Source: a virus
Strand: one strand, 5' to 3'
DNA: 64,000 bases
Virus record (IMG/VR): IMGVR_UViG_3300021185_002720
Span: 8,149 to 72,148 of that record
The notes beneath the pieces are model-generated. The model saw only the letters and a list, made by a program, of their open reading frames with translations, was not told the DNA's origin and did not search any database. The position numbers were made by a program, and so were the translations under genes. This document shows, piece after piece, positions 13,715 through 63,937 of the stretch (the first letter of the stretch is position 1; every line of letters begins with the position of its first letter).

Positions 13715-14225
13715 TAGATATGAAATGCAGATTCATAAGAGTGAATTTAAGCCTCTGCGAATCGATAATTCATTTTCTATAAAAGTAATAGATAAATTTG
13801 AAGACGGAGAAGAACATTTCAAACAGTTTATTGAGTCAATAGATATTAACTTAAGTGATTGGGATGAAAGGCCAACTTTAAATGATGTTAAAGATAGATT
13901 AAACGGAGTATCAAAATGTACTTTATTTTTTCATGAAGATATAAAAGAGGCTATCGGATGGGGGTGGTTCTCTAGTGTGTTTACATATGACTGGGTAAAT
14001 GAAGTGCATCCTCTACCTACTGATAATTCAACATACTGGGGAGGAACATATATACGTAAAGAATTAGACATACCAAAAACTACAGGCTTACAAATGTATA
14101 ACCACGGGTTTGAATTATTTCTTAGCTTTAGTGATTATATGTACGGCTATATGGATAGCTGGAATAAAGCACCTATCAAGATTTGTCATAAGATAGGCGG
14201 CCGTGAATTTAAATTTATACAATGA
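13707..14225 (+). CDS. GNAT-like hypothetical protein
   Basis: IGWGW, YIRKE, MDSWNKAPIKI..KIG resembles the GNAT C-terminal motif. Confidence 0.45.
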   Translation: MSDRYEMQIHKSEFKPLRIDNSFSIKVIDKFEDGEEHFKQFIESIDINLSDWDERPTLNDVKDRLNGVSKCTLFFHEDIKEAIGWGWFSSVFTYDWVNEVHPLPTDNSTYWGGTYIRKELDIPKTTGLQMYNHGFELFLSFSDYMYGYMDSWNKAPIKICHKIGGREFKFIQ

Positions 14226-14731
14226 TATTAGAAATAGAACAAGACATAGTAACATTACTAGAAGAGTTTCTCGATATAGTTCCTAAGGCTGGTGAAAAGC
14301 AAATGGATAGATTAGAGAAGATAGCTCCCGGTTTAGTTCATTTCAATAGATTTACAGAAGACTCTAATGAAACAGATATTGACTTCTATTCAGTAGATAA
14401 TGAAAACTTTAATACAGCATTAGCCGCAGCTTTAAAAATAGACCTATACAACCCAATTACAATCCATAGAGTAAATTATAACGTAGGAGGTAAAGCATTA
14501 GAACATAAAGATGAAAATTCTCTTCATACTTACGTAATAATGTTGGACGATAATTTTGAAGGAGGAGATTTTTACCTTAGAGGTGAACTTACAGACTTTA
14601 GACGAAGAGGCCAAGTTGCATACTATATGGGTATGGATGCTGCTCATAGTGTATCGGAAGTAACAAAAGGCTCAAGAAAAGTACTTGTAGTATGGTACAG
14701 AGGAACAAAACCAGAATTTAAAACATTATGA
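14222..14731 (+). CDS. 2OG-Fe(II) oxygenase
   Basis: HKD, FEGGDF, H.V.EVTKGSRKVLVVW. Confidence 0.85.
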   Translation: MILEIEQDIVTLLEEFLDIVPKAGEKQMDRLEKIAPGLVHFNRFTEDSNETDIDFYSVDNENFNTALAAALKIDLYNPITIHRVNYNVGGKALEHKDENSLHTYVIMLDDNFEGGDFYLRGELTDFRRRGQVAYYMGMDAAHSVSEVTKGSRKVLVVWYRGTKPEFKTL

Positions 14732-15438
14732 GTATAAAGCTCATCAGCTGCATTGGATTAGACTACGATAGACCGTTGCTCTCCCACTTTCTCAAGCATT
14801 ATAGAGCATTGGATATTGATAGTATTCATTTGATTATACACAAAAAATCTAAATTTAATATTCAAGAGATTTATGATGAATTTGGAGATGATTTAATTTT
14901 AGAGAAATGGGTTGGACTATTTGACGGTGTTACTAAAACCAGCAAACTAAATAAAATAATAGAGAACACAGAAGAAGATTATATCATGATGGCTGATGTA
15001 GATGAACACCAGATATGGGATACACCAGTTAATGAGTATTTAAATGTGAGTAACTTTAGATGGGGTAAATTAATTGATAGAGAGTCTAAAGAAAAACAAT
15101 TAATCGAAGTTACTGATGCCCCGTTGGATGAACAGTTTCCTTTAGTGACTAATAGAACTATATGGACTGATTTATTTAAACCATGTTTATTTCCATCTAC
15201 TGATAGATTAGCTAGTCCTCATCATTTAATTATTAATCATAACAATAACAAAGATATTATAGACATACATCATTACAGATGGGTTGCTGGACGATTAGAG
15301 AAAACAAAAGAAAGAAAAGATCATTATACTGAGTTAAATAAAACAGGATACCACTTAGAAAAATCTCCATGGAAAACTATTCCTAACTGGGAAGGAGATT
15401 ACATATTAAGAATGTATAAACCGGGTAAGTTAATATGA
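14728..15438 (+). CDS. GT-A fold glycosyltransferase (GT2-like)
   Basis: LLSHFLKHY..L, MADVDE DxD motif, HHYRW. Confidence 0.65.
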   Translation: MSIKLISCIGLDYDRPLLSHFLKHYRALDIDSIHLIIHKKSKFNIQEIYDEFGDDLILEKWVGLFDGVTKTSKLNKIIENTEEDYIMMADVDEHQIWDTPVNEYLNVSNFRWGKLIDRESKEKQLIEVTDAPLDEQFPLVTNRTIWTDLFKPCLFPSTDRLASPHHLIINHNNNKDIIDIHHYRWVAGRLEKTKERKDHYTELNKTGYHLEKSPWKTIPNWEGDYILRMYKPGKLI

Positions 15439-16166
15439 AGCAAGTAACTACAGTCTTATCGGTTGTTAAGAGATTAGAGTATTTTAAATCTCAAATTGAT
15501 GCGATAGAATCTCAAACTATAGATTCAGATATATTTGTAATATGGAGAAATGCCTCTGAGTATTCATTTCCTTATCCTAGTATTATATATAAAAATGAAA
15601 CGCAACATTTCAATTCCCTATACGGTAGGTTCTATAACTCACTTCATATAAAAACACCATATACGTTTATAGTAGATGATGACATTTTACCTGGAGGAAA
15701 ATATATAGAAAGATGTATTAATTTTAGTAAAGAACATAACGATAAAGTTGTAATTGCTACATACGGGGTTAATTTTAAATCTAATACTTCTAAATATACT
15801 CCAAAAGAAAGAATAGGACCTGAGGTATTTTTAAAAGAACCTAAAAAAGTAGATATGGGAGGTCAAGGATGGTTTATGAAAACTGAACTTTTACAGCATT
15901 TCCTTTACGATAGTATATTTAACGAAGGCTCAGGGGAAGATTTACATTATTCTTATTGTTTATTCAAGAATAAAGTACCTATTTATATAATAGATAAGGA
16001 TGTTAACGACTCTAAAACTTGGCAAGACCTTACTTTAGGTAAAAGAGGGGAAGACGATCAAGCTCAATGGAAGCAAACTCAACATTTAGACATAAGAAAT
16101 AAAGTTTTAAAACACTATACTACCAAAGGATGGCTTTCCGGAAGAGGAAATTCTACCTTAATTTAG
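15435..16166 (+). CDS. GT-A fold glycosyltransferase
   Basis: QIDAIESQT, YGRF, IVDDDILPG, GEDLHYSY. Confidence 0.7.
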   Translation: MKQVTTVLSVVKRLEYFKSQIDAIESQTIDSDIFVIWRNASEYSFPYPSIIYKNETQHFNSLYGRFYNSLHIKTPYTFIVDDDILPGGKYIERCINFSKEHNDKVVIATYGVNFKSNTSKYTPKERIGPEVFLKEPKKVDMGGQGWFMKTELLQHFLYDSIFNEGSGEDLHYSYCLFKNKVPIYIIDKDVNDSKTWQDLTLGKRGEDDQAQWKQTQHLDIRNKVLKHYTTKGWLSGRGNSTLI

Positions 16167-16184
16167 TAAATGCAAATTTACCGA

Positions 16185-16192
16185 TATTTATA
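16185..16192 (+). promoter_or_regulatory. class II (late-type?) TATTTATA box
   Basis: Recurs shortly upstream of gene starts (also 7940, 18385, 24694, 29054, 33426, 44685, 46698, 56533). Confidence 0.55.
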
Positions 16193-16220
16193 AACATAAA
16201 GAGAATTATATAATACCATT

Positions 16221-17636
16221 ATGAAAGGAACACTATTATCATTCGATTACGTTAGATCACCGGAAGGAGATTTAAAGTTCATTGAGATGAACACTGATAC
16301 GACGATCGCAGCCGATCAAATAGAACCATCTATTAATTGGGACGGTTTGTTCACAGTTATGCAAGACATTAGCGCTACAAAGCTTGATGTTATTTACAAA
16401 CCAGAAATACATCAACCAATTGTAAACCACTTATCTGCATCAGCAATGTCTCCGTCAGGGAGCTTTATTACTGATTTTACACATCATAAAGAAGATTACA
16501 GAAGTATCTTCCCAACTGCTGTAGAAGATGCAGCTGATAAATTTATTTTAAGATTAGCTTACGATGATAATGCTATTTTAGATAACACATATTGTGCTAC
16601 TGGACACGCACCACTTCAATTGCTTAATGAATATAATTCTTCAAGCTTAGCAGTTCCTTTCTTTTATAGTGGTAGTGAAGGAGAAGTAGATTTATTAACA
16701 ACATCTTCTAACAGCCTTAACATTCCAGATCTTGCAGTTAAGACAAAAAGAGATACTTGGGATGCATTAAAGTTTGTAAAGGTAAGAGACTGGAGTACAG
16801 TAAAAGGAGAATTAAAAGAAGATTACTTCTTAACTAATTACTTAATTCACCCTTCTTCTGAAGATACAGAAAATGCAGTTAGTTCTTATAGATCTTATGG
16901 TATTGCTTACGGCGGAGGATTGAACTATATGCCTCTTGGAGGTTTCCAACAGTACTCTCAATTTAGTATTCCAGAGGTTCTTGATCTTGCTGATGATGGA
17001 ATGAATAAAGTACTAGATAACAAACACTACTATGAGTATTCAACTAGTACTATAAAAAGTAAGCAAAATTATAACGGAGTATTCACTACAGAGAGACTTT
17101 TAGCAGCAGATAATGGAGCTTTACAAGCTAGTGAAATAAATACTGGACAGGCAATGAAAGGTTTTCACATACCTGGCTCACCTGACACAGAAGATAAAGC
17201 TACTTACATAGCATGGAGACATGTAGGGAAATCTTTACCTGCTAATTCTGGAGTTACTTCTTCGGTAGCAGTAGCAGCTTCAAAAGTATATCCAAATATT
17301 CATAATGATCTGTTTTCAATTCATCCTTCTGGATCTACGGAACCAGTTTATATAGGAGTTGATGCTGCAATTATTACTTATAATTCAGGTTCAGATACAT
17401 GGGCATATAGAGCACCACATCAAATCAATCAAGATTTAGATTACATCTTTAACACAGATAGTGAATTAGTTCCAATCTCATCATCACAGCATATTATTCT
17501 TCATCAACCTACAGGAAGTTTCTTTACTGTCGATATTGAAACAAATGATAACTTAGTTGTTGATACAGCAGATTCGAATAATGAAATTGTAATATCTTTT
17601 CACAATCCACCAGCAAAAATTGAACCACCAAAATAA
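16221..17636 (+). CDS. ATP-grasp-like N-terminal region plus C-terminal Hint (intein-like) domain
   Basis: N-terminal SFDY...LKFIEMNT; Hint-like start GVFTTERLLAADNG...EINTGQAM and end FTVDIETNDNLVV...ISFHN, followed by 9 residues. Confidence 0.5.
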   Translation: MKGTLLSFDYVRSPEGDLKFIEMNTDTTIAADQIEPSINWDGLFTVMQDISATKLDVIYKPEIHQPIVNHLSASAMSPSGSFITDFTHHKEDYRSIFPTAVEDAADKFILRLAYDDNAILDNTYCATGHAPLQLLNEYNSSSLAVPFFYSGSEGEVDLLTTSSNSLNIPDLAVKTKRDTWDALKFVKVRDWSTVKGELKEDYFLTNYLIHPSSEDTENAVSSYRSYGIAYGGGLNYMPLGGFQQYSQFSIPEVLDLADDGMNKVLDNKHYYEYSTSTIKSKQNYNGVFTTERLLAADNGALQASEINTGQAMKGFHIPGSPDTEDKATYIAWRHVGKSLPANSGVTSSVAVAASKVYPNIHNDLFSIHPSGSTEPVYIGVDAAIITYNSGSDTWAYRAPHQINQDLDYIFNTDSELVPISSSQHIILHQPTGSFFTVDIETNDNLVVDTADSNNEIVISFHNPPAKIEPPK

Positions 17637-17863: not shown

Positions 17864-18382
17864 ATGGTTACATCGTTAATATTACCCTATAAACCTTCGC
17901 ATGAGCTGAAGTGGTTAGAGAAATTCTTTAAGAAAGACTACTACAAGAAACCGTATGATAGATTCATGTGGTGGAGAAGCTATACCCCTAAACAGAAACC
18001 TCTTACTAATCGTCATGATTTGAGAGAACGTATCCTTAATGGAGATTTCGATGTGGCTCCCTATGCTTTCGAAGCACAGATAGTCGAACATAGAATGAAT
18101 AAGATCTTTGAGGAGTGTAAGGGATATGAAGACGTTTACAGAGAGAAGACTCAAGTAGATAAAGCAAGACGTAAGAGGCTATTAGAAGACTATGAAAAAG
18201 AAGAAGCCAGACGATTAGATGAATTGAAAAAAGCATTTGTTCTTAAGTTTAAGATGACTAAAGAGCAATACGAAAAAGAGGTAGTTAATACTAGGGCTCG
18301 TAACCTTATTAGCTTTTACGATAAAATGGAAGCAAAATACGGTACGTACTGGAAGCCTCTTAGTTATCCAAAGAAAACTTAG
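17864..18382 (+). CDS. hypothetical protein
   Basis: ORF behind the class I promoter at 17830-17860. Confidence 0.65.
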   Translation: MVTSLILPYKPSHELKWLEKFFKKDYYKKPYDRFMWWRSYTPKQKPLTNRHDLRERILNGDFDVAPYAFEAQIVEHRMNKIFEECKGYEDVYREKTQVDKARRKRLLEDYEKEEARRLDELKKAFVLKFKMTKEQYEKEVVNTRARNLISFYDKMEAKYGTYWKPLSYPKKT

Positions 18383-18423: not shown

Positions 18424-18726
18424 ATGAAACTATTTTTTATTATTTTACTTGCTGTAGCAGTAGCTGCAGTAGTAGTATGGGTAGGAACGAAGTATTTCGG
18501 ACTTGCACCAGACAAAGACAAAGACGGCATTCCAGACAAAGTTGAAGATGCAGCTGAGAAAGTAAAGGCTACAACTAAAACTGTTAAAAGAAGAGCCAAG
18601 AGAGTTAAAGAAGAAGTTAAAGATGTAGTAGAAGAGATCAAGGACGTGATTGATCAAACTAAAGACATCAAAGGAGCAGTTCAAGGTAAGCCTCGTAGAG
18701 GTAGAAAGCCAAAAGCTAAAAAATAA
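18424..18726 (+). CDS. membrane-anchored Lys-rich protein
   Basis: N-terminal TM segment, DKDKDGIPD motif, basic tail. Confidence 0.65.
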   Translation: MKLFFIILLAVAVAAVVVWVGTKYFGLAPDKDKDGIPDKVEDAAEKVKATTKTVKRRAKRVKEEVKDVVEEIKDVIDQTKDIKGAVQGKPRRGRKPKAKK

Positions 18727-19014: not shown

Positions 19015-19189
19015 ATGCCCTTTTCTCACTAATTTAGTATAGCTTTTACTCAAACCTGTATATTTATTATTAGAATGCCGGTTAAGTCGATAAAGGTAAC
19101 CAAAAAGTCGATAAACCAATCTAATCGTTCTACATAAATTTTCTACGTTAATCGTTTTATAATTGTTGCAGTCGCAAAGCAGTAATTAT

Positions 19190-19660
19190 ATGAGACTATT
19201 ATTATTTTTATTAAGTCTCCTATTCAGTTTCTCAATCTTTGGACAAGAGATAAAAATAGGTGATGTAAGTAACAATATCGAATTAGGTAACCTAGCTGGT
19301 AACAGAGACTTAGCATTTGGTGTTAAGAATGTACTAGAAGAAGTCATCCAAGACTACGGGTATGACCTAAACCCAAACTCAAATAATATACTGGAAGTAG
19401 AATTGCTTTACTTTGATGTTCAACAGAACAATTTTCAAATAGCAGCCTACGGAAAAAATATCGATATCTATCAGATCATCGCCAGAGGCGTATATTCTAT
19501 AGACGGTAAAAAGAAGAAAAAAGCAGTAGCTAAAGGAACAGCAAAATCTATTTCTACAGCTACATTAATAATTGATAAGGGAGGTAAGTTTTCACAGGCT
19601 AACGTCTCGACAGCAATAAAAAAACTCTGTGAAGATTTAATACGTAAACTAAAACTATGA
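19190..19660 (+). CDS. exported protein (signal peptide)
   Basis: MRLLLFLLSLLFSFSIFG/Q signal peptide. Confidence 0.65.
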   Translation: MRLLLFLLSLLFSFSIFGQEIKIGDVSNNIELGNLAGNRDLAFGVKNVLEEVIQDYGYDLNPNSNNILEVELLYFDVQQNNFQIAAYGKNIDIYQIIARGVYSIDGKKKKKAVAKGTAKSISTATLIIDKGGKFSQANVSTAIKKLCEDLIRKLKL

Positions 19661-21345
19661 TGAAAAAATTATTATTTTTATTATTATTATTGCCAACGAT
19701 AGCTCTAGGACAGACCTTTGTAGTTGGTATGAACTCCGGTGCTGATGCAGACGTGGGTGAAGAAATTGAACTTAAATTTGAATTGTTTCCTGAATCAGGA
19801 CAATCAACTATGCCGGCTACATTTTTACGATTTGATGTTCAATGGAACAATAAATTACTTGAATATGTTAGCCATACATTAGATCCTTTAAATAAATTAA
19901 CTAGCGAGCAATCAGCTAGAACTCATTGGGATGGGTATAAATTTAACCAGGATATGGACTATAGTTCATCTAATTTATATAGACATTTCTTATGGTGGAA
20001 CGGAGGAGCAGCTCAAGCTGGTTCAAGTTCATACCCTACAAATAGTGACTTCTCAGTTGATAGGTTTACTATTCAAGCATCAGAAGACATTAATTTATAT
20101 GATGCTGTATTGCATATGAAATTTAAAGTATTAGATAGACAAGGTACTAACTATCAAAACTATTCTGGAGCTTTTCAAATTAACTGGGCTCAATTGGAAG
20201 ATAATAGAGATGGTACGGTACACCAACTTGGTTCTACTAATCACCAAATTGGATTAGATCCAGGAGGAGTAGGAGCAGGAGATGTTACTTTAAACTTAAC
20301 TATACCTACAGATTATAAAGCAGATTATAAATATAATATATATCTTGCAAGTCAAGTAGAGGAAACAGATTATGATGGTGATGGAACTAACGATGGATTA
20401 GAGCCTAAAGAAGGAGAGCAGCCTTTTGCTGTAGGTACCTTTAATGGCAATGGTACTGCTTCTCTTGCTACATTAACATTAGACGAGGAAGTATGGGTAC
20501 ACACTTATGTAGACGGTACTCCAGATTGGTTAGATGATGTAGTAACAGTAACAGATGTTTATAAAGCATTTCAATTCGCATTAGGTTCTACTGGTGGACC
20601 TGGAGGAGGAGCTGCTAACTGGGAGCATGAAGTACAAGCTATATTAGGAGAAGTAACTAACGATAATGTAGTAAACTTTGATGATTCTTATGAACTACTT
20701 GCTCATGTAAATGGAGTAGAGACAAGTGCTAATGTATCTTCTAAAGCAAATGGAGCTTTTAACTTCTCATCATTGATGGATAAGTACGGAGATATATCTG
20801 AATTTATGAGTGCTCGTACTTTTACTGCTACAGATGATAATAAGACATTTACTATAGGACATGGACTAAGAGGAGATTTAGATTTCTCTCACTCAACAGT
20901 TCCTACTTTTACCTCATCTGATGCTCAATCAACTTCAGCTAGAAATGCACAAGCATTTTCTATTATATCTAACAGATCAGTAGAAACAGAAACTATCGAT
21001 TTAACATCATCACTTGTCGACGGTCAAGTAATCGTAGATGTAAATTTAGACACAGCTGGACTAGTTGGATCTCAGTTTAAAATTGTATTTGATAATAACA
21101 TACTAACTTTAGATGATATCATATACGATACAGGATCTAATATGACTAACTTTGGTACGGTAAAAGGTAACGTAGTATCATTTGGTTCATTAGATTACGC
21201 TGGTGATGTATCAGTAAATACAGGAAGACCTTATAGGTTAGTCTTTACACCAAACGAAAATATAACAAACACAGCAGGACTGGTAAGCTTTAAAATCATA
21301 GAAGGAGTTAAAGCAGACGGAACTAAAGTTAAATTCCAATACTAA
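19657..21345 (+). CDS. exported cohesin/dockerin-like domain protein
   Basis: Signal peptide; cohesin-like FDVQWNNKLLEYV and QFKIVFDNNILTL; Ca-loop/dockerin-like DYDGDG, VTVTD, NDNVVNFDD. Confidence 0.55.
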   Translation: MMKKLLFLLLLLPTIALGQTFVVGMNSGADADVGEEIELKFELFPESGQSTMPATFLRFDVQWNNKLLEYVSHTLDPLNKLTSEQSARTHWDGYKFNQDMDYSSSNLYRHFLWWNGGAAQAGSSSYPTNSDFSVDRFTIQASEDINLYDAVLHMKFKVLDRQGTNYQNYSGAFQINWAQLEDNRDGTVHQLGSTNHQIGLDPGGVGAGDVTLNLTIPTDYKADYKYNIYLASQVEETDYDGDGTNDGLEPKEGEQPFAVGTFNGNGTASLATLTLDEEVWVHTYVDGTPDWLDDVVTVTDVYKAFQFALGSTGGPGGGAANWEHEVQAILGEVTNDNVVNFDDSYELLAHVNGVETSANVSSKANGAFNFSSLMDKYGDISEFMSARTFTATDDNKTFTIGHGLRGDLDFSHSTVPTFTSSDAQSTSARNAQAFSIISNRSVETETIDLTSSLVDGQVIVDVNLDTAGLVGSQFKIVFDNNILTLDDIIYDTGSNMTNFGTVKGNVVSFGSLDYAGDVSVNTGRPYRLVFTPNENITNTAGLVSFKIIEGVKADGTKVKFQY

Positions 21346-21350
21346 ATAAT

Positions 21351-21725
21351 ATGAAAAAAATAACAACATTACTAGCATTACTTGTCCTATTAGGATGTGC
21401 TAAAGACGAATTAGAATTTGAAGCACCTTTTAACGAAGTACCAGATGCATTGCAAATATTAGATCCAATCGGTCTAAAATTAGAAAGCGCTATTGTAACT
21501 AACAAAGTAGCAATCAATGCTAAGTTTGACGTAGAAGGTAGCTATAGAATAAAGATAATTGATATAAGTGGTAAAGTAGTATCACAGGATAAAATTACAG
21601 CAACAGCTGGTGATAACTTACTTAACATTTATACTACAGCTCTTGATAAAAGTTCTTATCAAGTCTATATAACAGATAACTTTAATAATGTATTAGGAAT
21701 AGAGTCCTTTACTATGATAGATTAA
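21351..21725 (+). CDS. lipoprotein with T9SS C-terminal-domain-like fold
   Basis: Lipobox LLGC; YRIKIIDISGKVV...NIYTTALDKSSYQVYI. Confidence 0.55.
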   Translation: MKKITTLLALLVLLGCAKDELEFEAPFNEVPDALQILDPIGLKLESAIVTNKVAINAKFDVEGSYRIKIIDISGKVVSQDKITATAGDNLLNIYTTALDKSSYQVYITDNFNNVLGIESFTMID

Positions 21726-21727: not shown

Positions 21728-21991
21728 ATGGCAGAAAAAGATAACACATTTGGAGAAATAAAAAAAGCAATAATAGGGGTCGTAACCCTAGCTATTACTA
21801 CTGCAGGTGGACTTTTTATTGCTAATATGGAAAATATCTTCAAATCAGAAGATAAGAAAGAAATTGTAACTGATGTAGATACTAACGAATCTACAAAAGA
21901 TACGATTGTTGTATTCTCGCAGCAAAAAAAGGAACCTGAAGTTGTCGCAAAACCTCAGGCTCCCGTAAAAGAGGAAAAATACGAGTGGTAA
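21728..21991 (+). CDS. single-TM protein
   Basis: Hydrophobic segment AIIGVVTLAITTAGGLFI. Confidence 0.6.
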   Translation: MAEKDNTFGEIKKAIIGVVTLAITTAGGLFIANMENIFKSEDKKEIVTDVDTNESTKDTIVVFSQQKKEPEVVAKPQAPVKEEKYEW

Positions 21992-22010
21992 CCTTTAAAA
22001 ATTAAAAACT

Positions 22011-22238
22011 ATGATTAACGTAATTAACTTTTTCGCATCTCCCTTCATATCAATATATGAAGAAATATTCGAACAGCCAACTTTATTATGGAAAATTTGG
22101 CATTCTTTTTTGCTACTATGGGTAAGTAGCTTATTTTTATTATTCGTTGTTGGATGGACTTTTTTGGTATTTAACTTAATAACCAATCCTAGTTCATTCG
22201 AAAACGCTACGTTCGGGGTCTTCGATACACTTGGTTAA
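22011..22238 (+). CDS. membrane protein
   Basis: Hydrophobic ORF within the operon. Confidence 0.5.
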   Translation: MINVINFFASPFISIYEEIFEQPTLLWKIWHSFLLLWVSSLFLLFVVGWTFLVFNLITNPSSFENATFGVFDTLG

Positions 22239-33436: not shown

Positions 33437-34024
33437 ATGGAATATAAAGACGCACTTAAATTAGCAGATGCAGTACCTGGATCTCTGATAGAATTAGGAT
33501 TTGGTAGAGGTAATAGTTTGAAAGAATTTATTTCCTATATGAATAATATTGAAATAAATAAAAGGAACATATGGATATATGAATCCTTTGACGGTTATAA
33601 TAACCCTACCCCTGAAGATAATAAAGCGTTTAAGAAAGGAGACTTTAAAAGACCTCCACAACCAGCTTATGATATTAGAAATACTATCAACACTAAAGTT
33701 GAGTTAGTTAAAGGCTACATAGAAGAGACATTACCAGCTAAGTATGATAAGTCTCCAGTTTCTATTGTGCACTCACATTTAATAAGCTATTCAAGTACTT
33801 TACATGGGTTAGAGAATTTCGAAAAATACATGCCTCCTGGTAGTGTAATTATAGTTACCGACTATCAAGCATTCGAAGGAACCAAACAAGCAGTAGATGA
33901 GTTTTTAATTAAGTTTGCTCCTAAATTTAAAACTATAGAAGTAAACGATACATTTATAGTTCTACAGACACAAAAGGTTCAAACATTAACTAATAAAGTA
34001 TTAAGAACTAGATCAGAATTTTAG
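33437..34024 (+). CDS. TylF/MycF-like O-methyltransferase
   Basis: PGSLIELGFGRG, YESFDG, LVKGYIEETLP, GTKQAVDEF; several canonical Asp residues are substituted. Confidence 0.7.
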   Translation: MEYKDALKLADAVPGSLIELGFGRGNSLKEFISYMNNIEINKRNIWIYESFDGYNNPTPEDNKAFKKGDFKRPPQPAYDIRNTINTKVELVKGYIEETLPAKYDKSPVSIVHSHLISYSSTLHGLENFEKYMPPGSVIIVTDYQAFEGTKQAVDEFLIKFAPKFKTIEVNDTFIVLQTQKVQTLTNKVLRTRSEF

Positions 34025-34027
34025 TTA

Positions 34028-34498
34028 ATGCATAGTATTCCAGAGCATTTAGAATATCATCTTAAAACTATTCTTTATCATACGGAAGATGCTTACATAG
34101 GAGGAAGTATAGAAGATTATTTCCTTTTAGGTTTCTCTGATAAGGTAATTAACGATGTAGATGTATTTACATATGACCATAAAGACCTTGAGAGACTTAT
34201 GGATTATTATGGAGAACCATTAGAAGTAGTTAAGAATAAAAAGAGAGCAGCTTTGATAGGAGATGTTTCTCATTTATATAAGTATAAAGATGTAGACATA
34301 CATTATATTGAGAGTTCAACATACCCTCATGAATTTATGACTACCAGATATAAAGATATGGTAATCACTCATCATACCTTAAAAAGTAAAAAAGGTATAG
34401 CAAAAATAGAAAGTGATTGGTTCCTGAAAAATGGAATAGAACTAGAGAAAGGAAAATCAATAGAAAGGATTTTAAAAACACAAAATAAGTTGCTTTAA
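34028..34498 (+). CDS. nucleotidyltransferase-like protein
   Basis: YIGGS...NDVDVF. Confidence 0.5.
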   Translation: MHSIPEHLEYHLKTILYHTEDAYIGGSIEDYFLLGFSDKVINDVDVFTYDHKDLERLMDYYGEPLEVVKNKKRAALIGDVSHLYKYKDVDIHYIESSTYPHEFMTTRYKDMVITHHTLKSKKGIAKIESDWFLKNGIELEKGKSIERILKTQNKLL

Positions 34499-39338: not shown

Positions 39339-39339
39339 A

Positions 39340-43412: not shown

Positions 43413-44530
43413 TTATACCTTCATATAATACATTACCTCATCTTAAAAATACTTACGAAAGTATCAAGCTTTGGGGTAAAGACGCAACTATAATTATTAT
43501 AGATGATGCATCAGAGGATGGTACTGCTGAATGGTTAGGTACCTTAAGAGATAAAATGCTTAAGATTATCATTAGCAAAGAGAGAAAAGGACATACATAT
43601 TGGTACGATGAAGGAATGAGGTTAGCTGAAACAGATATAGTTTCTATACTTCATTCAGATATGATTATAGGTCCAAATTACTTTGAGAACTTATTCAAAC
43701 ATTTAGAGAGAGGTAAAGTAGTATGTGCTACTAGAATAGAACCTCCTATTCATCCTGCTGGTAGAGAAAAGATAGTAAGAAACTTTGGTGATGAAGCTCA
43801 TAACTTTATGTGGGATGCTTTTAAGAAGTTTGTTATTCAGGAAAAAGCTGATAGTGTTAATGATACTACAAGAGGTATATTTGCTCCTTGGATGCTATAT
43901 AAAGAAGATCATTTATCAATAGGAGGACATGATCAAAGGTTCGCCCCATTTGGATACGAAGACTCAGACATTTTTAATAGATGGATTAATAATGGATATG
44001 AAATGATTCAATCTAGAGACTCATTAGTCTATCATATGACTTGTAGAGGACATAAATGGAACGCAGGAGTAGGAATAGAGAATCATGACTATAGAGAGAT
44101 AATGACTCGTTGTGAAAGAGAGTACCAACGTAAGTGGGGTGATTGGATACAAAATGATAATTACCAATACCCTATCATTTATCCAAAATATGATAAAGGA
44201 ATTATAATAAAGAATTGTAAACCAGAACTGATAGGACAGTTGGAACCTTGGGCGGATAATTTATATGTTGATATAGATTATAAATCTTATATAGAAACAG
44301 AGCAAACACGCACAGTCACAGACTTATACGATAGAATAAAGCCTTTCGATAATGAGAAACAAAACCATATATTAATCGAAGTAGACGGTAATACATTTAC
44401 GCAGCAGGATTATATTTATATTAGACAGTTAAGTGCTATTCTAAAACAAAATCAACCTAAGCCTGGAAGTGTTACATTAGGAAACCTTAACATTAACATT
44501 ATTAATTATGAAGAAAAAATACTTAGTTGA
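43397..44530 (+). CDS. GT2 glycosyltransferase
   Basis: IIPSYN, IDDASEDGT, LHSDM, GGHD.RF...EDSD. Confidence 0.85.
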   Translation: MRHTVIIPSYNTLPHLKNTYESIKLWGKDATIIIIDDASEDGTAEWLGTLRDKMLKIIISKERKGHTYWYDEGMRLAETDIVSILHSDMIIGPNYFENLFKHLERGKVVCATRIEPPIHPAGREKIVRNFGDEAHNFMWDAFKKFVIQEKADSVNDTTRGIFAPWMLYKEDHLSIGGHDQRFAPFGYEDSDIFNRWINNGYEMIQSRDSLVYHMTCRGHKWNAGVGIENHDYREIMTRCEREYQRKWGDWIQNDNYQYPIIYPKYDKGIIIKNCKPELIGQLEPWADNLYVDIDYKSYIETEQTRTVTDLYDRIKPFDNEKQNHILIEVDGNTFTQQDYIYIRQLSAILKQNQPKPGSVTLGNLNINIINYEEKILS

Positions 44531-48552: not shown

Positions 48553-48851
48553 TGAAAAAGATACAATTTGAAAACGCAGCAGAGTTTGAAACATTATTCA
48601 AAAGAAAAACTGAAGAAGTAACAGATGCTATAGTAGAGTCTATTGAACAAGCTATTACAGATAGAAAAAAAGTAGCTGATTTGTTTGAAGTAAGCTTCGT
48701 TAACGTTGAAGAGGCATTTATTATTTCACTTAACCGCTCGCAATGGGTTACAGCTTTAAATTCCTGCTTAGATCACTACCATGAAAACTCTAGTGATCCA
48801 GACAAAGCTATTGATACATGGAAGTTATTAGAAATAGCTAAGGTATATTAA
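48552..48851 (+). CDS. hypothetical protein
   Basis: Coupled ORF. Confidence 0.6.
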   Translation: MKKIQFENAAEFETLFKRKTEEVTDAIVESIEQAITDRKKVADLFEVSFVNVEEAFIISLNRSQWVTALNSCLDHYHENSSDPDKAIDTWKLLEIAKVY

Positions 48852-50053
48852 TGAGTGGAATAAAAGCCATACAGAGCTTCGTTAACTTCGGTACTCCGAA
48901 TAGTACTTTTCCTTTAAATAAAGACTATGCTTATATTGCTAAGCTAAGTAGTCTACTCTTAAAAGAACATTATGGAGAGGTTACCCTTTATACAAACAAG
49001 TATCATAAGAGTGCCTTTGAACTAATGAACTTCCCATATGAATACGATACTAATGTACTTTCAAAAGAGAAAGCAAAGATATTTTCTGAGGTAAAGCTAC
49101 AAGCATTTGCAGCACAAGATAAACCTTATATACATTTTGATTTAGATACTATAGTTGGTACGAAGCTAGACATTTATAGTAAGACATCTCCTTTTATATT
49201 CTCTCATCCTGATAAAAATAGAATAGGATTTAGAAAAGATGGAAAGATCAAAGGAGGAAAGAAGCATAAAGTTCTGCACTCTTTTCTAAACGATAGATGG
49301 TTTCATGATATATTCTCTACGTACTTTAAGTATCTTTGGACCTTAAAACTACCTAAAGACTGGCCTACTCATCTTATATTTCCAGAATTAATTCCTAATA
49401 TGAATATCGTTGGAGTTAAAGATCCTACTACGTTTAATAAAGCTGTAGAGAAAGCATTATGGATTGCTAATAACAATAGAGATAAGCTTACAGATTGGGA
49501 ATCAGCCTGCTTTATAGAACAATTAGTTATACCTCTTTACCTTTCGTTTATTAGCCCTGAGTATAGAGAAGCACAGAAAGCTCATAAGAATAAAATAGGT
49601 ATAGATTCTTTCTTACTAGCTAACTATGAGCTTAATGAAGTCCCTTCGATAAATTTAAAAGGTGATTACGATGAGAGTATATACCATACAACTCCTCTGA
49701 AGTTTCCTTATAAGTATATTAATAATTATTCTTGCTCTGAATGCTCAGACTTCCATAAAAGAGAGTATGAGATAAACTCTGATGAAGATTTAGTTAAAAT
49801 TTTAGACTTAAAAGATTATAAGTTAACACACATTGGTGGGTTTAATAAATCAGTTATAATCTATCAGGTAATGGTTCTTTACACACTTAAGAAATACTTT
49901 GGTGATGATGCAATTTTGGATGTAACGAAAGCTTATTTAGGTAAGAGAAAGAAAGCTAGACTGTCGCCTGGTGAAGCAGAATATGAAAGACTAACAGGTG
50001 ATTATTTATTTACAGATTTTTATGGTTTTCCAAGAAAAAAACTGTTACTTTAG
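48851..50053 (+). CDS. GT-A-like protein (DUF6734-like)
   Basis: VTLYTN, KL......PYIHFDLD, NMNIVG, FIEQ. Confidence 0.55.
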   Translation: MSGIKAIQSFVNFGTPNSTFPLNKDYAYIAKLSSLLLKEHYGEVTLYTNKYHKSAFELMNFPYEYDTNVLSKEKAKIFSEVKLQAFAAQDKPYIHFDLDTIVGTKLDIYSKTSPFIFSHPDKNRIGFRKDGKIKGGKKHKVLHSFLNDRWFHDIFSTYFKYLWTLKLPKDWPTHLIFPELIPNMNIVGVKDPTTFNKAVEKALWIANNNRDKLTDWESACFIEQLVIPLYLSFISPEYREAQKAHKNKIGIDSFLLANYELNEVPSINLKGDYDESIYHTTPLKFPYKYINNYSCSECSDFHKREYEINSDEDLVKILDLKDYKLTHIGGFNKSVIIYQVMVLYTLKKYFGDDAILDVTKAYLGKRKKARLSPGEAEYERLTGDYLFTDFYGFPRKKLLL

Positions 50054-50126
50054 TTGCCTAGGAACTTAATTTTTCTTATATTTAAGTATAAATAAGTTAC
50101 TAATATAAATTAAAAAGGTTATTATT
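50051..50126 (+). promoter_or_regulatory. class I promoter, TAGTTGCCTAGGAACTTA subfamily
   Basis: TTG 50054, TATATTTA 50077; identical core at 58049 and 59255. Confidence 0.75.
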
Positions 50127-53562: not shown

Positions 53563-54287
53563 TGAACGTAGCTGTATTAGTAGACATAATTAAAGAAACA
53601 AAAATGAATTGGAGGTTTATATTTGAATCTCCTCTTTATGATAATATCAATTTCATACCTGGTCAATTAGTACAGATAGGTATTCCCTGGAATGAAAAAT
53701 GGGGCTCTGGAGGAGATTGGCTTACTAGAAATTACTCTGTAGCTTCCTACCCTGACAATACTAATAAGTTTGAACTTATAGTGACTTATCTTCCTGGAGG
53801 TAAAATGTCAGATTACTTATTTAATGAAGCTAAGATTGGAGACGAAATTATTTATAGAGGTCCTATGGGAGTATTTACTCTGCCTGATAATCTACTAGAG
53901 AGAGATATATTTTTAGTATCAACAGGTTCAGGAGTTAGTCCTTTTCGTTCTATGATTAATAATATTTACAATAAGAACATACCTTTTAAGAAAATTAATC
54001 TTTATTTTGGTACTAGAAAAGAATCTGATTTACTGTATCGACAAGAGTTTGAAAAGATAGCTAAAGAGTTACCTAACTTTAACTATAGACCTACTCTGTC
54101 ACAAGAAGATAAACTAGGTTTTAGGAAAGGACACGTTCACGAACATTACCTAAATGATATCAATACTGATGATAAACCATTAGTCTACTTCTGTGGATGG
54201 GATCGAATGATTACTGAGGGAAGGATAAAATTAGATGCAATGGGATTCAAAATGCAAAAAGATATTAGAGTAGAAATATTCGGTTAA
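53562..54287 (+). CDS. FAD/NAD(P)-binding oxidoreductase (ferredoxin-NADP reductase family)
   Basis: PGQ, RNYSVAS, GKMS.YL, GPMG.F, TGSGVSPFRSM, FCGW. Confidence 0.9.
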   Translation: MNVAVLVDIIKETKMNWRFIFESPLYDNINFIPGQLVQIGIPWNEKWGSGGDWLTRNYSVASYPDNTNKFELIVTYLPGGKMSDYLFNEAKIGDEIIYRGPMGVFTLPDNLLERDIFLVSTGSGVSPFRSMINNIYNKNIPFKKINLYFGTRKESDLLYRQEFEKIAKELPNFNYRPTLSQEDKLGFRKGHVHEHYLNDINTDDKPLVYFCGWDRMITEGRIKLDAMGFKMQKDIRVEIFG

Positions 54288-54805
54288 TGGAAGAGCAATT
54301 ATTATTTACAGAAGAAGAATGTAATTGGTTATTAGATCATGCTACTGATTACCACGATAGTACTGTTTCTTATGATTGGAATAGAACACCTGAGCTGCAA
54401 AGGATAAAGAACGATAAAGAGAGAATATCAGAGCAATGTGAACTAGGTCAACCAGAAGGTCCATTAAAAGACTTTCTATTAGAGAAATTAAAACCTTTAG
54501 GATTTCAAAACTTAGATGGAGCATTCTTAAACTACGTAAGGTATTTCAAAGGAGGGTTTTTTACCAAACATATAGATGGTCCTGAAAGACATAAGACTTG
54601 TATTATTCAATTAACTCCTGAAGAAGTTTATAAAGGAGGTGATTTAATCGTTAGAGATAAAATAGTAAGTAAAGAAGTTGGTACAACTGTAATATTCGGT
54701 TCTAATGTTCCTCATGAGCTAACTCTAGTAGAAGAAGGTTATAGAAACTGCTTAGTTGTATGGACGAAAAAAGGTAATTTAATTGAAAAAAATACATTGA
54801 TTTAG
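54287..54805 (+). CDS. 2OG-Fe(II) oxygenase
   Basis: FTEEEC, HID, YKGGDL, HEL..V.EG.RNCLVVW. Confidence 0.85.
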   Translation: MEEQLLFTEEECNWLLDHATDYHDSTVSYDWNRTPELQRIKNDKERISEQCELGQPEGPLKDFLLEKLKPLGFQNLDGAFLNYVRYFKGGFFTKHIDGPERHKTCIIQLTPEEVYKGGDLIVRDKIVSKEVGTTVIFGSNVPHELTLVEEGYRNCLVVWTKKGNLIEKNTLI

Positions 54806-54865
54806 TTGCCTCCCTGCGTTATTCTTCTTATATTAAGGTATAATTAAAAAGGTAAAATAAAGGTT
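54803..54865 (+). promoter_or_regulatory. class I promoter
   Basis: TTG 54806, TATATTAA 54829. Confidence 0.75.
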
Positions 54866-59314: not shown

Positions 59315-59818
59315 ATGTATTTATCAGTAAACAAAAATTATTCAAAGACAGATTGTAAAATTGCTAAGGCAGAAAAGAATGACTGTGTTGTCAGATCTAT
59401 TGCTGCTGCTACCGGCGTTAGTTACAGAACAGCTCATGCTTTTTGTAAAGAAGAGTTGGGTAGAGAAGATAAGAAAGGAACTAATAATATGCTTCTTTCT
59501 ACTACGTTCCTGAAAGCTCAGGACGATGGCTTAAAGTTAGGTAATAAAGTATTCGATGTTTACGGACTTAAGAAAGAAGAAGTAAAGAATAAATATAAGC
59601 TTAAAGGCGAAGAGATTTGGAGACAGAAGACTCTTAAAAGCTTTATTCAATCTCATCCTAAAGGTACTTTTATGGTACTAGTTGCTAGACATGCTCTTGT
59701 AGTTAAAGATGGAGAGTTGTTAGATTGGGAGAATAATAAGTTCGAACCTACTCGTAAGGTTATGGGTGCTTATAAAATTACTGAGAAGAGTTCTGTAACT
59801 CAATTAAGCTTATTTTAA
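59315..59818 (+). CDS. hypothetical protein ending in QLSLF
   Basis: NDCVVRSIAAATG...HPKG.F.V.V..H; class I promoter upstream. Confidence 0.65.
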   Translation: MYLSVNKNYSKTDCKIAKAEKNDCVVRSIAAATGVSYRTAHAFCKEELGREDKKGTNNMLLSTTFLKAQDDGLKLGNKVFDVYGLKKEEVKNKYKLKGEEIWRQKTLKSFIQSHPKGTFMVLVARHALVVKDGELLDWENNKFEPTRKVMGAYKITEKSSVTQLSLF

Positions 59819-60214: not shown

Positions 60215-60345
60215 GAGAGAAGATAGGTGCTACCAAGAAGGAAGCAGATGCAGTAGCTAGGTTTAGAACCATTATAGTTGCTCAAGCAGTAATAACGAAT
60301 ATATTAATCGCAGTAAATATTATAATCAATTGGTTAAAGAATTAA
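60187..60345 (+). CDS. small membrane protein, 52 aa, missing from the ORF track
   Basis: MWRLWARALGEK...EADAVARFRT..., a pattern recalled from aquatic phages. Confidence 0.6.
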   Translation: MWRLWARALGEKIGATKKEADAVARFRTIIVAQAVITNILIAVNIIINWLKN

Positions 60346-61253
60346 ATAAATTTATATACGAGAGTAAGATAAACGTTCCAGTTGATCCTACCTTTGAACT
60401 AAGACCTGGAGTCTATGGATGGTGTGGTTCAGATGATCCTGAAACGTTTGAGAAGAATATTACATCAGATGTAAGAAGAAAGTATCTTGAAGAGTATATA
60501 GATAAACCAATAGAGTATAAACTTAATAAGCAGATGCTAAGATGTGATCTCGATATAGAAGAGATTAGAGATAAACCTGTTGACCTATACTTAGGATGTT
60601 CACATACATTCGGTACTGGACATTATAAAGAGAATACCTGGCCTTACCAAATGTCTAAGTATACCGGTAATATAGAAGTTAATCTAGGAAGACCTGGAGG
60701 TGATATAGAAGCTTCATATATGAGATTACTTCAGTACGTTAGGAGATTAAATGTAGCTAACGTATTTCATCTACAACCTCCTTATTATAGGTATGGCTAT
60801 AGGACGCATAATACTCATTCTACCTGGATGGTATGGAATGCTGAGAAAGAGATGAAAGACTTCTATGGTCAAGATTACGTTTGGAATAACTACCTCACAG
60901 ATGGTGCTAGAGAGTATAACTATATGAAATACCTAAACCTTATCAGGTATGAATGTAACAAACTAAACATTCCTTATTACCATTCTAACATTCGTAATAT
61001 AGAAGAAGCAGATACTGATTATATTCTAAAAGAGTATAAAAAGCTATGGACTGAAGAAGAGACTATGGAGGAAGCATTAGACTTTACTAAGTACGGAGAT
61101 GTACCTGCAAGAGATCTAATGCATTACCCAGTGAGTATAATGAAGAGAGCAAGTAGAATGTTCATAGATCTTTACGATGAGTATGAAGAAGGTCATGTTA
61201 ACGAAGCATTCGATACTGAGAAAGCATTAACCTATAACAATACATTAATATGA
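60330..61253 (+). CDS. SGNH-like protein
   Basis: LGCSHTFG, WP, NLGRPGG, ARDLMHY. Confidence 0.6.
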   Translation: MVKELNKFIYESKINVPVDPTFELRPGVYGWCGSDDPETFEKNITSDVRRKYLEEYIDKPIEYKLNKQMLRCDLDIEEIRDKPVDLYLGCSHTFGTGHYKENTWPYQMSKYTGNIEVNLGRPGGDIEASYMRLLQYVRRLNVANVFHLQPPYYRYGYRTHNTHSTWMVWNAEKEMKDFYGQDYVWNNYLTDGAREYNYMKYLNLIRYECNKLNIPYYHSNIRNIEEADTDYILKEYKKLWTEEETMEEALDFTKYGDVPARDLMHYPVSIMKRASRMFIDLYDEYEEGHVNEAFDTEKALTYNNTLI

Positions 61254-62430: not shown

Positions 62431-62717
62431 TAGTGTCTAAGGTAGTGTACGGCTGAGGCTACACATAGATATTAATCATATAAGATATAGGGAGAGACTA
62501 AGGGTATCATATGTAGATCCTACGTAGAATGACCTATTATCCAATGAAGCCTATTAATAATAGCGAGTGTATATATTCATATAAAGATATAGCTATATAA
62601 ACCTATATAATGTATAGAGATAAACGTAGGTAATGTATGTATTTTAAGATAGGAACATCAGGCTTGGCCCTACCCCTGTTCTTTTTTTCTCTCTATATAG
62701 CAAAATAACCAGTGAAA

Positions 62718-62769
62718 TAGTTGGATCCTATTGTTTTTTTTCTTATATTAAGGTATAATAATAAAGGTT
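62718..62769 (+). promoter_or_regulatory. class I promoter
   Basis: TTG 62721, TATATTAA 62744. Confidence 0.7.
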
Positions 62770-63072
62770 ATGACATATACAGACAAGGTAAAAGGCTCTA
62801 AGGCAGTCCTTACGGCCATCCAATCACTTAAGAATGAAGAGAAGTTAAAGGTACAATATGGTACAGGCTATAAAGGCAAGCCTAACATATATACCATACA
62901 TGCCTATAGTGGTAGTAAAGGAGATATGTCCTATAGTATCTGGAGTAGCTTTAGTGGTATGAATATAGACTCTTTGGGTCCTACTATGGCTAAGGCCTAT
63001 ACCTTTGACATGATGTCACAGAAGACTAGCTATAACTTCCCATTATACCAGATGGAGATAGTTAGTGAATAA
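62770..63072 (+). CDS. hypothetical early protein
   Basis: Behind the class I promoter at 62721-62751, with AAAGGTTATG start. Confidence 0.65.
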   Translation: MTYTDKVKGSKAVLTAIQSLKNEEKLKVQYGTGYKGKPNIYTIHAYSGSKGDMSYSIWSSFSGMNIDSLGPTMAKAYTFDMMSQKTSYNFPLYQMEIVSE

Positions 63073-63124
63073 GTTGGTAGTCTGAATTATTATTCGTATA
63101 TTGTATATATAAAGAGAGATAGAT

Positions 63125-63331
63125 ATGGACAAGTTAATTAGATATACCGGCCTTACAGTACTAACCCTATTGGTACTTAGCATAGGTATAGCTGCCATAC
63201 ATGGCATTATCTGGATAGGAGTAAGAGGCTTAGGTCTAATGCTCAACTACCCACTAGAGGCCTTTGCCTTGACTTCGGTCCTAACTATCCTTATGTTGCT
63301 ACCTTGGGACAGGAATCCTTCCGGAAGCTAG
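63125..63331 (+). CDS. membrane protein
   Basis: Behind the promoter at 63074-63104; hydrophobic. Confidence 0.5.
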   Translation: MDKLIRYTGLTVLTLLVLSIGIAAIHGIIWIGVRGLGLMLNYPLEAFALTSVLTILMLLPWDRNPSGS

Positions 63332-63469
63332 ACGGCAGGTTGCCCTAACCTTGCCATAACACTGACGGTATAGTTCCCTTATAGGTACGCTATCGGCATG
63401 GCTGCGCCATACTAAGTTGCATATTTCTTATGATTTTTATGGGTATAGGTAATATATATTTATATATTG

Positions 63470-63937
63470 TTATAATAATGAGTTATTACCTTGTGGTACC
63501 GTCCATAGGTTTAAAGCTATTCGCGAGCCATTAGAGACTTTCTCTACACCGTGTAATATCTTACCGCCATTTAACACTATAGTATCTCCTTTAGCCATCT
63601 CTATATATGTCTTCTTCTTTATAACGAATCTTCCTCCTGTATAACCATCATTGAGTGCTGAGATTATAGTATAGTTGCTAGCTTTAGCGTCTCTATGGTG
63701 GGCTAATCCTTCTCCAATATTGTATTCATTTATATTCATCCACCTTTCGTTGAATTTCCAGGGAACTAGGGGAGAAAAAAATTCCAAAATTTTCGTATAT
63801 AGGGGGCCTTTGTTTAAGGTATATGGATATGTATCCCATTCTCCTCTTATATCTTCATATCCTTCGTTCTTATATGTAGAGACAATCTCATCACATAGAT
63901 CATTTGGTACGAAATTCTTATATATCTTATATTCCAT
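63470..63937 (-). CDS. 2OG-Fe(II) oxygenase
   Basis: HRD, YTGGRF, HGVEKV..G.RIALNLW. Confidence 0.85.
   Translation of the reverse strand: MEYKIYKNFVPNDLCDEIVSTYKNEGYEDIRGEWDTYPYTLNKGPLYTKILEFFSPLVPWKFNERWMNINEYNIGEGLAHHRDAKASNYTIISALNDGYTGGRFVIKKKTYIEMAKGDTIVLNGGKILHGVEKVSNGSRIALNLWTVPQGNNSLL

Follow-up and report, generated by a model that had tools for sequence, protein, structure and literature searches.

A hydrophobic C-terminal tail on unrelated tailoring enzymes of marine phages: a candidate recognition tag

Short C-terminal tags on unrelated enzymes are known from peroxisomes, encapsulins, sliding clamps and PDZ networks. Here we describe a short C-terminal tail carried by unrelated tailoring enzymes that are encoded in a 64-kb window (positions 8,149 to 72,148) of the viral contig IMGVR_UViG_3300021185_002720 (72,148 bases; denoted G000). 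In its sequence, in the class of enzymes that bear it, in its occurrence in phages and in its link to a Hint-like protein, this tail agrees with none of those known systems, and a full-text literature search, supplements not covered, returned no C-terminal tag described for accessory metabolic enzymes of tailed phages. Coordinates are window positions unless marked as positions of the contig, of a genome (G00x) or of a locus (L0xx).

The consensus of the tail is [K/N]-K-[S/N/T]-[L/I]-I-COOH, set on a flexible linker rich in Lys, Asn and Ser. The logo and the tail counts are based on 167 dereplicated tails. The last position (position 0) is Ile in 75% (125 tails) and Leu in 14% (23 tails), followed by Val (8), Phe (5) and Met (2), and is thus hydrophobic in 163/167. 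Position −1 is Leu in 47% and Ile in 25% (120 tails with either; Lys in 10). At position −2, Ser (61 tails, 37%) is the most frequent residue, ahead of Asn (27, 16%), Thr (23, 14%), Pro (12) and Asp (11), with Lys and Arg also present. Lys occupies position −3 in 43% of the tails; at −4, Lys (25%) and Asn (21%) prevail.

The class I PDZ ligand, [S/T]-x-hydrophobic-COOH, with which an earlier, sequence-only reading of the window had compared the tail, shares with it a free carboxylate and a hydrophobic end. Ser or Thr fills position −2 in just 84 of the 167 tails, however, and the phage-encoded PDZ domain that would complete the analogy was not found (see below). Bacterial PDZ proteins are mostly periplasmic, whereas the tailed phage enzymes are without signal peptides. 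Peroxisomal targeting signal 1 is a C-terminal tripeptide of the Ser-Lys-Leu type with a basic residue at −1, and is read by Pex5. It resembles the phage tail in being a free C-terminal tripeptide on enzymes of related metabolism and unrelated fold, in the basic residues that come before it and in its conservative variation; it differs in that the phage tails are hydrophobic at −1 and that the bacterial host has no such organelle. Encapsulins have the HK97 phage-capsid fold and dock their cargo via short disordered C-terminal tails of unrelated enzymes, and so offer a precedent from the phage-related world. The cargo peptide has a different consensus, however, and the phage tail genes lie away from the capsid genes; no encapsulin shell-like gene turned up in Pfam scans of the tailed gene blocks, although no search was aimed at encapsulins.

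Dockerins, which are folded domains of ~70 residues, belong with the cohesin scaffold of cellulosomes. That system likewise equips a swappable set of enzymes with a C-terminal module, but the phage module comprises 3–5 residues and its scaffold is a candidate only. Leader peptides of ribosomally synthesized and post-translationally modified peptides (RiPPs) are read by RRE domains. The phage blocks are similar in that hydroxylases, a halogenase, and glycosyl- and sulfotransferases surround a single protein whose C-terminal peptide is hypervariable and in some cases rich in Cys; the direction of recognition would be reversed, since the enzymes and not the substrate would bear the tag, and no RRE domain was seen. 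The β-clamp-binding motif, given as Q-aliphatic-x-[L/M]-[F/L] in PMC11139829, also brings many enzymes to one hub by means of one short disordered, often C-terminal motif. Where the motif as given there has Gln followed by an aliphatic residue, the phage tails have Lys or Asn at −4 and Lys at −3.

The tail and the enzymes that carry it

The contig has a guanine plus cytosine (GC) content of 33–36%, and nearly all of its genes are on the same strand. The window PolA is 67.5% identical to the PolA of Flavobacterium phage vB_FspM_immuto (hereafter immuto), a 160-kb T4-like myovirus that has homologs of 38 of the 126 contig open reading frames (ORFs), among them a glycosyltransferase cluster, GroES/GroEL and the 7-deazaguanine genes. 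Whole records of two uncultured viruses that are closer relatives were also used (G001, 156 kb, 94% complete; G002, 91 kb). Family clustering was carried out on 1230 ORFs from G000–G002 and 60 loci fetched via the GT64-like glycosyltransferase family; a second set of 76 further IMG/VR loci was fetched with the profile of the SGNH-like family. A more distant contig from this second set, G004 (103 kb, 32% GC), encodes a GroEL 52% identical to the window GroEL.

Four of the 126 non-overlapping contig ORFs, from four unrelated families, end in TLI, where the internal frequency of this tripeptide (10/22,851 positions) predicts 0.055. Nine ORFs, from seven sequence families, have an L-[I/L] end, whereas 1.67 would be expected (binomial p = 5e-5). 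The sequence-only reading had linked the tail to tailoring enzymes; by our own classification it is present in 8/20 tailoring-type ORFs and in 1/106 others (Fisher p = 8e-7). The proteins which that reading had named as tail-less (PolA, GroEL, QueF, NadE and NeuB) do lack it, as do some tailoring enzymes, namely NeuB, the glycosyltransferases common to immuto, a TylF-type methyltransferase and a pyruvyl transferase. At the same GC content (34.5%), immuto shows no enrichment of L-[I/L] ends (3/223 ORFs versus 2.7 expected), and none of the tail-bearing contig ORFs has an immuto homolog.

Tails of the kind described are found on the following proteins. The glycosyltransferase at 15435–16166 (plus strand; GNSTLI, with tail codons at 16155–16163 and stop TAG) is of a GT64/KfiA/heparosan-synthase-like type. 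It matches Pfam Glyco_transf_64 (E = 3.5e-5), and its AlphaFold2 model (predicted local distance difference test score, pLDDT, 90.5 overall) displays a GT-A fold with PmHS2, KfiA and EXTL2 as best Foldseek matches. The last six residues of the model (238–243) fall below pLDDT 50; the tail is therefore disordered and extends freely from the fold at the C-terminus. Where the end of a homolog is intact, its last residue is I/L/V/M in 43/43 cases and is preceded by a hydrophobic residue in 35/43. The second glycosyltransferase-like gene, 14728–15438 (plus strand; PGKLI; weak match to Pfam Glyco_tranf_2_4), has a stop codon that overlaps the next start (ATGA); in its family, fam2, the last residue is hydrophobic in 28/29 members.

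The sulfotransferase-like protein at 39340–39921 (plus strand; KGKTLI) contains PRSGST and RKN..H..S motifs, and its single match in the Protein Data Bank (PDB) is the CurM sulfotransferase (E = 0.95). In the alignment of this family (A3; 25–54% identity), Ile or Leu is the last residue in 26/26 sequences and is preceded by L/I/F in 24/26. The earlier list of members was incomplete in that it overlooked two paralogs of this protein, one at 7400–7948 (plus strand), ending KKKKQRYL, and one at contig 665–1318, upstream of the window, ending NLI. A tail-less APS kinase encoded adjacently (38171–38608, plus strand; Pfam APS_kinase, E = 5.7e-20) forms part of the evidence for the sulfotransferase label and would provide 3′-phosphoadenosine 5′-phosphosulfate (PAPS) to the sulfotransferase-like enzymes. 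A 2-oxoglutarate (2OG)-Fe(II) oxygenase that resembles prolyl 4-hydroxylases (P4H) is encoded at 54287–54805 (plus strand; EKNTLI; Pfam PF13640, E = 1.2e-8), 61 nt from the next gene, and its homologs, at 49–99% identity, end x-L-[I/L] in 18/18 cases. Its paralog in the same family, 63470–63937 on the minus strand (PF13640), ends GNNSLL, and the ortholog of that protein retains the tail end. The SGNH/GDSL-like hydrolase at 60330–61253 (plus strand; YNNTLI) was recognized by a profile match to a GDSL-family PDB structure (E = 0.003). The evidence for both functional labels, sulfotransferase and SGNH, is weak.

Two further members are provisional. The protein encoded at 34028–34498 (plus strand; QNKLL) matched no Pfam, NCBIfam or PHROG family and has no assigned function, and that at 48851–50053 (plus strand; RKKLLL) is a DUF6734 protein (Pfam, E = 2e-12). 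Both endings are as first reported, and the conservation of each is seen in a single close ortholog, ending ENKLL and RKKLLL, respectively. All nine ORFs of the earlier list have the coordinates, endings, codons and stop codons that it gave, and one of them is nevertheless discarded here as a member: the 2OG oxygenase at 14222–14731 (plus strand; KTL), which had been put forward as a weak case, has a 79%-identical ortholog ending ADKK.

Within the 1230 clustered ORFs, the tail is distributed bimodally by family. It is present in the GT64-like (38/47), 2OG oxygenase (25/30), sulfotransferase-like (25/27), second 2OG (8/8), GT8 (9/9), fam40 (6/6), DUF6071 (7/7) and SGNH-like (4/4) families, and absent, with 0–1 cases each, from PolA, GroEL, GroES, Hsp20, fam4 and fam5. 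Other relatives extend its range to an Asp/Asn β-hydroxylase, a radical S-adenosylmethionine (SAM) protein, a GDSL lipase (S-Y-I), GT25 and Sulfotransfer_2. The tail is also conserved among orthologs. The GT64-like family has a hydrophobic last residue in 46/47 members and uses 26 different terminal tripeptides; after its conserved GW.F, the linker varies both in length (5–13 residues) and in sequence. Consistently low entropy marks the last position of the four large families (0.6–1.6 bits, versus 2.3–3.5 bits in the preceding linker), and the ends of the neighbouring tail-less fam4 and fam5 reach 2.9–3.0 bits.

These data support the earlier proposal that the target of selection is the peptide and not the DNA. 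Synonymous codons encode the tail, and it persists where no gene adjoins downstream: within one block, Ser is encoded by AGT, TCA or TCT, Leu is encoded by TTA, TTG or CTA, and each of the three stop codons occurs; terminal Ile codons free of any stop/start overlap are ATT (31), ATA (18) and ATC (3). With a gap of at least 25 nt to the next gene, the tail is kept in 44/47 members of tail families versus 21/278 ORFs of other families, and tightly overlapping genes of other families have a tail-like end in 37/336 cases. A nucleotide-level bias does exist. Contig ORFs with an ATGA stop/start overlap (for example at 14731, 15438 and 61253) end in Leu or Ile in 17/28 cases, whatever their family, the last codon being TTA or ATA. 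This effect is real, yet it does not explain the tail; it must be controlled for in any tabulation of C-termini from these genomes.

In any one contig, tails also resemble each other across families. With one contig taken per 80%-identity cluster (25 clusters), 12 identical tripeptides were found against 4.1 when tails were shuffled within families across contigs, and 7/2000 shuffles reached 12, although lineage-specific amino-acid composition could inflate this co-variation and the contigs are related and were fetched via tail-bearing families. Four G000 families, for instance, share TLI, and another lineage has S-K-I alongside T-K-I. Such co-variation is what one would expect of a shared reader; recent gene conversion is unlikely because the four TLI tails use different codons.

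In a tblastn search of 50,697 cultured-phage records, the glycosyltransferase, SGNH-like and sulfotransferase-like proteins gave no match, and the 2OG oxygenase retrieved only homologs of ~30% identity, from cyanophages and other sources. Neither of the two 2OG homologs examined, from cyanophage S-CAM7 and marine virus AG-345-E15, has a tail. No cellular relatives emerged when 185,579 species genomes were scanned for the patterns of the 2OG (A2) and glycosyltransferase (A1) profiles.

The fam26 protein and the tailed gene blocks

Directly after the two tailed glycosyltransferase genes lies the gene of a tail-less protein, denoted fam26 (16221–17636, plus strand), with a conserved N-terminal domain and a Hint-like C-terminal part. 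A hidden Markov model search identified 19 fam26 ORFs, which cover every tail-rich lineage inspected (G000/G001, G002, L034, L052/L057, L086, L093, L095, L096 and the G004 group). A single copy is present in each of G000, G001, G002 and G004, all of them tail-bearing; in immuto, whose genome is complete, there is no fam26 in called ORFs or in six frames, and there are no tails either. The tail occurs in 67 of 148 ORFs located at most six genes from fam26 versus 186 of 2121 elsewhere, an odds ratio of 8.6 whose p-value is inflated because the contigs are related and were ascertained via tail families.

Some relatives have gene blocks that are tailed almost throughout. The 76 IMG/VR loci contain [LI][LI] ends in 157/1474 ORFs versus 32 expected, and most genes of some contigs carry the tail (13/17 in L100, 12/16 in L098). 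In G004, 23/183 ORFs are tailed, against 4.9 expected (p = 1e-9); in its region G004:10408–20710, 13 of 14 consecutive ORFs end K/N/T-x-[L/I]-[I/L], and the sole exception is the fam26 homolog. The same pattern, with the fam26 homolog as the exception, is seen in L093, L095 and L096. Pfam assignments in the G004 block include a Trp halogenase (E = 9e-85) that ends KELI and no fewer than four 2OG oxygenases; the sulfotransferase-like and SGNH-like families are represented as well. For ten block or neighbour proteins, PHROGs gave no match. Tail genes are located in the early/metabolic half of the genome, apart from the capsid genes.

The N-terminus of fam26 is invariant (M-K-x-T..S.D...E.N-T). 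In a language-model atlas, residues 1–130 scored 0.86 with GshA and 0.82 with GSP_synth/circularly permuted ATP-grasp, both under the 0.9 mark, so that the resemblance of the N-terminal domain to ATP-grasp-type ligases may serve as a lead only. The window copy has no Pfam match, and single-sequence search gave no PDB match. The body of the protein was aligned by hhalign with the canonical Hint inserts of its relatives over 82 columns (90.7% probability, E = 1e-6), and the fam26 profile retrieved the KlbA intein 2jmz (E = 0.009) and the RadA intein 4e2u (E = 0.018). The body ends in a His-Asn pair (residues 461–462) that is invariant in 11/11 aligned members. Behind this pair the end is hypervariable. 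It consists of the nine residues PPAKIEPPK in the window copy, of a single Lys in L034, and of Cys-rich peptides of 30–36 residues in L100 and L096; the L100 peptide has two Trp residues, and a halogenase is encoded in the L100 block. In five lineages, the end is formed by one or two complete Pfam-recognised Hint/intein-like domains that terminate in VHN-K. Relatives of fam26 are located at L023:6778–8604, L052:3349–5334, L086:4016–6217, L093:4327–6150, L095:699–2543, L096:6187–7683 and L100:6436–7926. A splicing intein needs Cys, Ser or Thr after its final Asn; at the VHN-K ends the residue at this place is Lys, which suggests cleavage or ligation rather than splicing.

A common partner and the competing explanations

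From the sequence patterns described above we somewhat favour the reading that the tail is a C-terminal recognition tag read by a common partner. The motif, its conservation as a peptide, its disorder, its restriction to one enzyme class and its genomic and phyletic link to fam26 are observed; that anything binds it, which partner does so and for what purpose are inferred. The tail would represent a short linear motif, recognised at the free carboxylate end, that marks a swappable set of tailoring enzymes in large GroEL-encoding marine phages. The set comprises glycosyltransferases, 2OG hydroxylases of the P4H and Asp/Asn types, esterases of the SGNH/GDSL kind and sulfotransferase-like enzymes, to which relatives add a Trp halogenase. 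All tagged enzymes would be coupled through the tail to one partner. The leading candidate for that partner would be fam26, the single tail-less protein of the blocks, an assignment that we regard as tentative. It might bind the tails and recruit the enzymes to itself or to its hypervariable C-terminal peptide; alternatively, it might act chemically on the C-terminal carboxylates of the enzymes. ATP-grasp and Hint chemistry both centre on C-terminal carbonyls, and RimK and tubulin-tyrosine ligase are ATP-grasp enzymes that act on protein C-termini. The carboxylate-activating ligase, which the sequence-only reading had named as an alternative, gains a lead from the ATP-grasp-like part and the Hint-like domain of fam26.

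A fuller version of the partnership, which we consider speculative and somewhat less likely than the partnership as such, is a precursor-centred machine. In it, fam26, with an ATP-grasp-like N-terminal domain, a Hint-like autoprocessing domain and a peptide that is Cys-, Trp- and Pro-rich in some lineages, would engage the tails of up to 13 enzymes, either by binding or by covalent capture. These hydroxylases, halogenase, and glycosyl-, sulfo- and acyltransferases would modify its peptide one after another. The arrangement would be RiPP-like, except that the enzymes would bear the address and the substrate the receptor, and the code would drift jointly across enzyme families in each phage lineage.

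Other readers were considered. Hsp20 (8024–8443) was rejected: its groove takes I-x-I motifs, while the hydrophobic residues of the tails are adjacent and not alternating, and S-CAM7 has Hsp20 together with a 2OG oxygenase without tail. The phage GroES loop for GroEL reads G-N-I-V-I, and immuto possesses GroEL and GroES yet no tails; GroEL as the reader is neither supported nor excluded. A predicted complex of the GT64-like protein (A1) with fam4 (A4) scored 0.01 versus a mark of 0.32, in a run without controls, and counts neither way.

Several results weigh against a shared recognition tag. None of the PDZ profiles PF13180, PF17820 and PF00595 found a match (E ≤ 1) in G000–G002, whereas each matched all 14 control genomes. 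A PDZ protein of the host might still read the tail, and the reader is unproven. At the level of families the excess is moderate (hydrophobic-hydrophobic ends in 13/96 families versus 7.4, p = 0.034; [LI][LI] ends in 8/96 versus 2.4 expected, p = 0.003), and the difference between immuto-shared genes (2/83 with tail) and others (10/121) is not significant (p = 0.13). The motif is loose in fam2, where a hydrophobic residue precedes the last one in only 14/29 members, and just 42 of 150 distant SGNH-like representatives end hydrophobic-hydrophobic (last residue Ile in 37 and Leu in 28 of the 150). A carbamoyltransferase of G002 that ends KTLL was rejected as a member, its 86%-identical homolog ending KTT and only 4/120 homologs ending hydrophobic-hydrophobic. 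Because most distant SGNH-like representatives and the 2OG homologs of S-CAM7 and AG-345-E15 lack the tail, it is specific to clade and family and not a property of the fold, which is a weakening result. The tail genes of G001 are spread over ~70 kb and mostly do not adjoin fam26. For fam26 itself, the ATP-grasp likeness lies below the noise mark of the tool, and the AlphaFold2 model is poor (mean pLDDT 47.6, bad beyond residue 110) and unfit for fold search. The ascertainment and composition effects noted above for fam26 proximity and for co-variation belong here as well.

The alternative with most in its favour, although we think it unlikely, is that the tail is a turnover tag, a basic-then-nonpolar C-terminus acting as a degron for a host AAA+ protease of the ClpXP, FtsH or Lon kind, so that the tailoring enzymes would be short-lived or cleared at a set stage of infection. 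The exposed, disordered tail with two nonpolar residues after Lys would suit such a role, which recalls the ssrA- and MuA-type C-terminal ClpX signals and the destabilising effect of nonpolar C-termini on proteins in E. coli, and a host-encoded reader would explain why the phage has no recognisable reader domain. A degron predicts neither the restriction to a single enzyme class nor the clustering round fam26, however, nor would tails co-vary within genomes unless hosts differ; the preference for Ile at the last position also departs from the Ala-rich ssrA type. Less probable again is an intrinsic physical role without a dedicated reader, that is, a weak membrane association or self-association of glycan-building enzymes at the inner membrane or in homo-oligomers. 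Lys at −3 or −4 followed by L/I-I fits this idea, as do the likeness of the glycosyltransferase to KfiA/heparosan synthase, whose pathway operates at the membrane, and the small membrane and lipoprotein-like proteins encoded nearby. Two hydrophobic residues fall far below known amphipathic targeting helices, however, and soluble-type 2OG hydroxylases and a Trp halogenase are tailed too; the basic part of the tail may be background, because K-rich ends without the hydrophobic pair are normal in these AT-rich genomes.

A by-product of nucleotide-level constraints, arising from AT-rich codon bias, ATGA/TAATG overlaps and an A/U-rich start context of the Bacteroidota type, is less probable still. 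It draws on the ATGA effect described above, on the 93/167 tails that overlap the next start, on the A/T-rich tail codons and on the overuse of ATA as the last codon (87/125 Ile versus 47% genome-wide). What largely refutes it for positions −1 and −2 is the persistence of the tails at gaps of at least 25 nt against their scarcity in coupled genes of other families, the hydrophobic end kept by homologs at 45–60% identity while the linker drifts, the switching of Ser between AGT and TCN, the lack of enrichment in immuto and the tail-less cyanophage 2OG homologs. Chance and inheritance, by which a few families ended hydrophobic by luck and phylogenetic inertia did the rest in selected examples, is an explanation to which we give hardly any credence. 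The modest family-level excess, a motif partly defined post hoc and the ascertainment of loci via tail families speak for it; it is contradicted by a row of 14 genes from unrelated families of which 13 are tailed, by low terminal entropy behind variable linkers that the control families do not share, and by enrichment in the second, independently fetched contig set. Taken together, a recognition tag with a common partner remains the reading that we prefer.

Neighbouring genes and implications

The tailed-enzyme block is bracketed in most related loci by two conserved proteins of 172 residues without a known family, fam5 (13707–14225) and fam4 (17864–18382), which are described as never tailed. 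It is followed in most of these loci by a module of three consecutive genes with signal-peptide- or lipoprotein-like N-termini (19163–19660; 19657–21345, 562 residues; 21351–21725), the last of which has a weak Por_Secre_tail/DUF3244 match. Genes for small membrane proteins (18424–18726 and 21728–22238) flank the module. Chaperone genes comprise the Hsp20 gene at 8024–8443, which is absent from immuto and 84–94% conserved in relatives, GroES/GroEL at 8508–10473 and, at 3925–4503, a protein with a weak J-domain match.

A tail-less sugar cluster extends over 33437–44530. It encodes a TylF-type O-methyltransferase, a HAD protein, NeuB, a polysaccharide pyruvyl transferase, two cytidylyltransferase-like proteins, the APS kinase, an MptE-like protein, DUF6492 and glycosyltransferases; its content points to a supply of nonulosonic acid and PAPS for a modified glycan. 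The fold of the glycosyltransferase at 15435–16166 (PmHS2 GlcNAc-transferase domain, KfiA, EXTL2), the sulfotransferase-like genes and the APS kinase hint at a sulfated heparosan-like product.

An intergenic motif similar to TTCTTATATTTAA, often behind TTGCCT, comes after several genes (34499–34523, 50054–50126 and 54806–54865) and appears promoter-like for this phage group. The 167-residue protein encoded at 59315–59818, which has no known family, ends T-Q-L-S-L-F, which agrees exactly with QLxLF, the consensus for high-affinity β-clamp binding in PMC11139829. Its ortholog retains the QLSLF end, and the protein may dock on the sliding clamp of the host.

If the tail is a true address, it would flag hypothetical marine-phage genes as members of one pathway and thus provide a cheap annotation rule. 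The family of 16221–17636, with its Hint-like domain and hypervariable peptide, would then be their common target, and the tail itself would constitute a portable tag of 4–5 residues for the recruitment of enzymes to a scaffold. The richness of marine phage genomes in glycosyltransferases and 2OG oxygenases, long unexplained, would thereby become testable.

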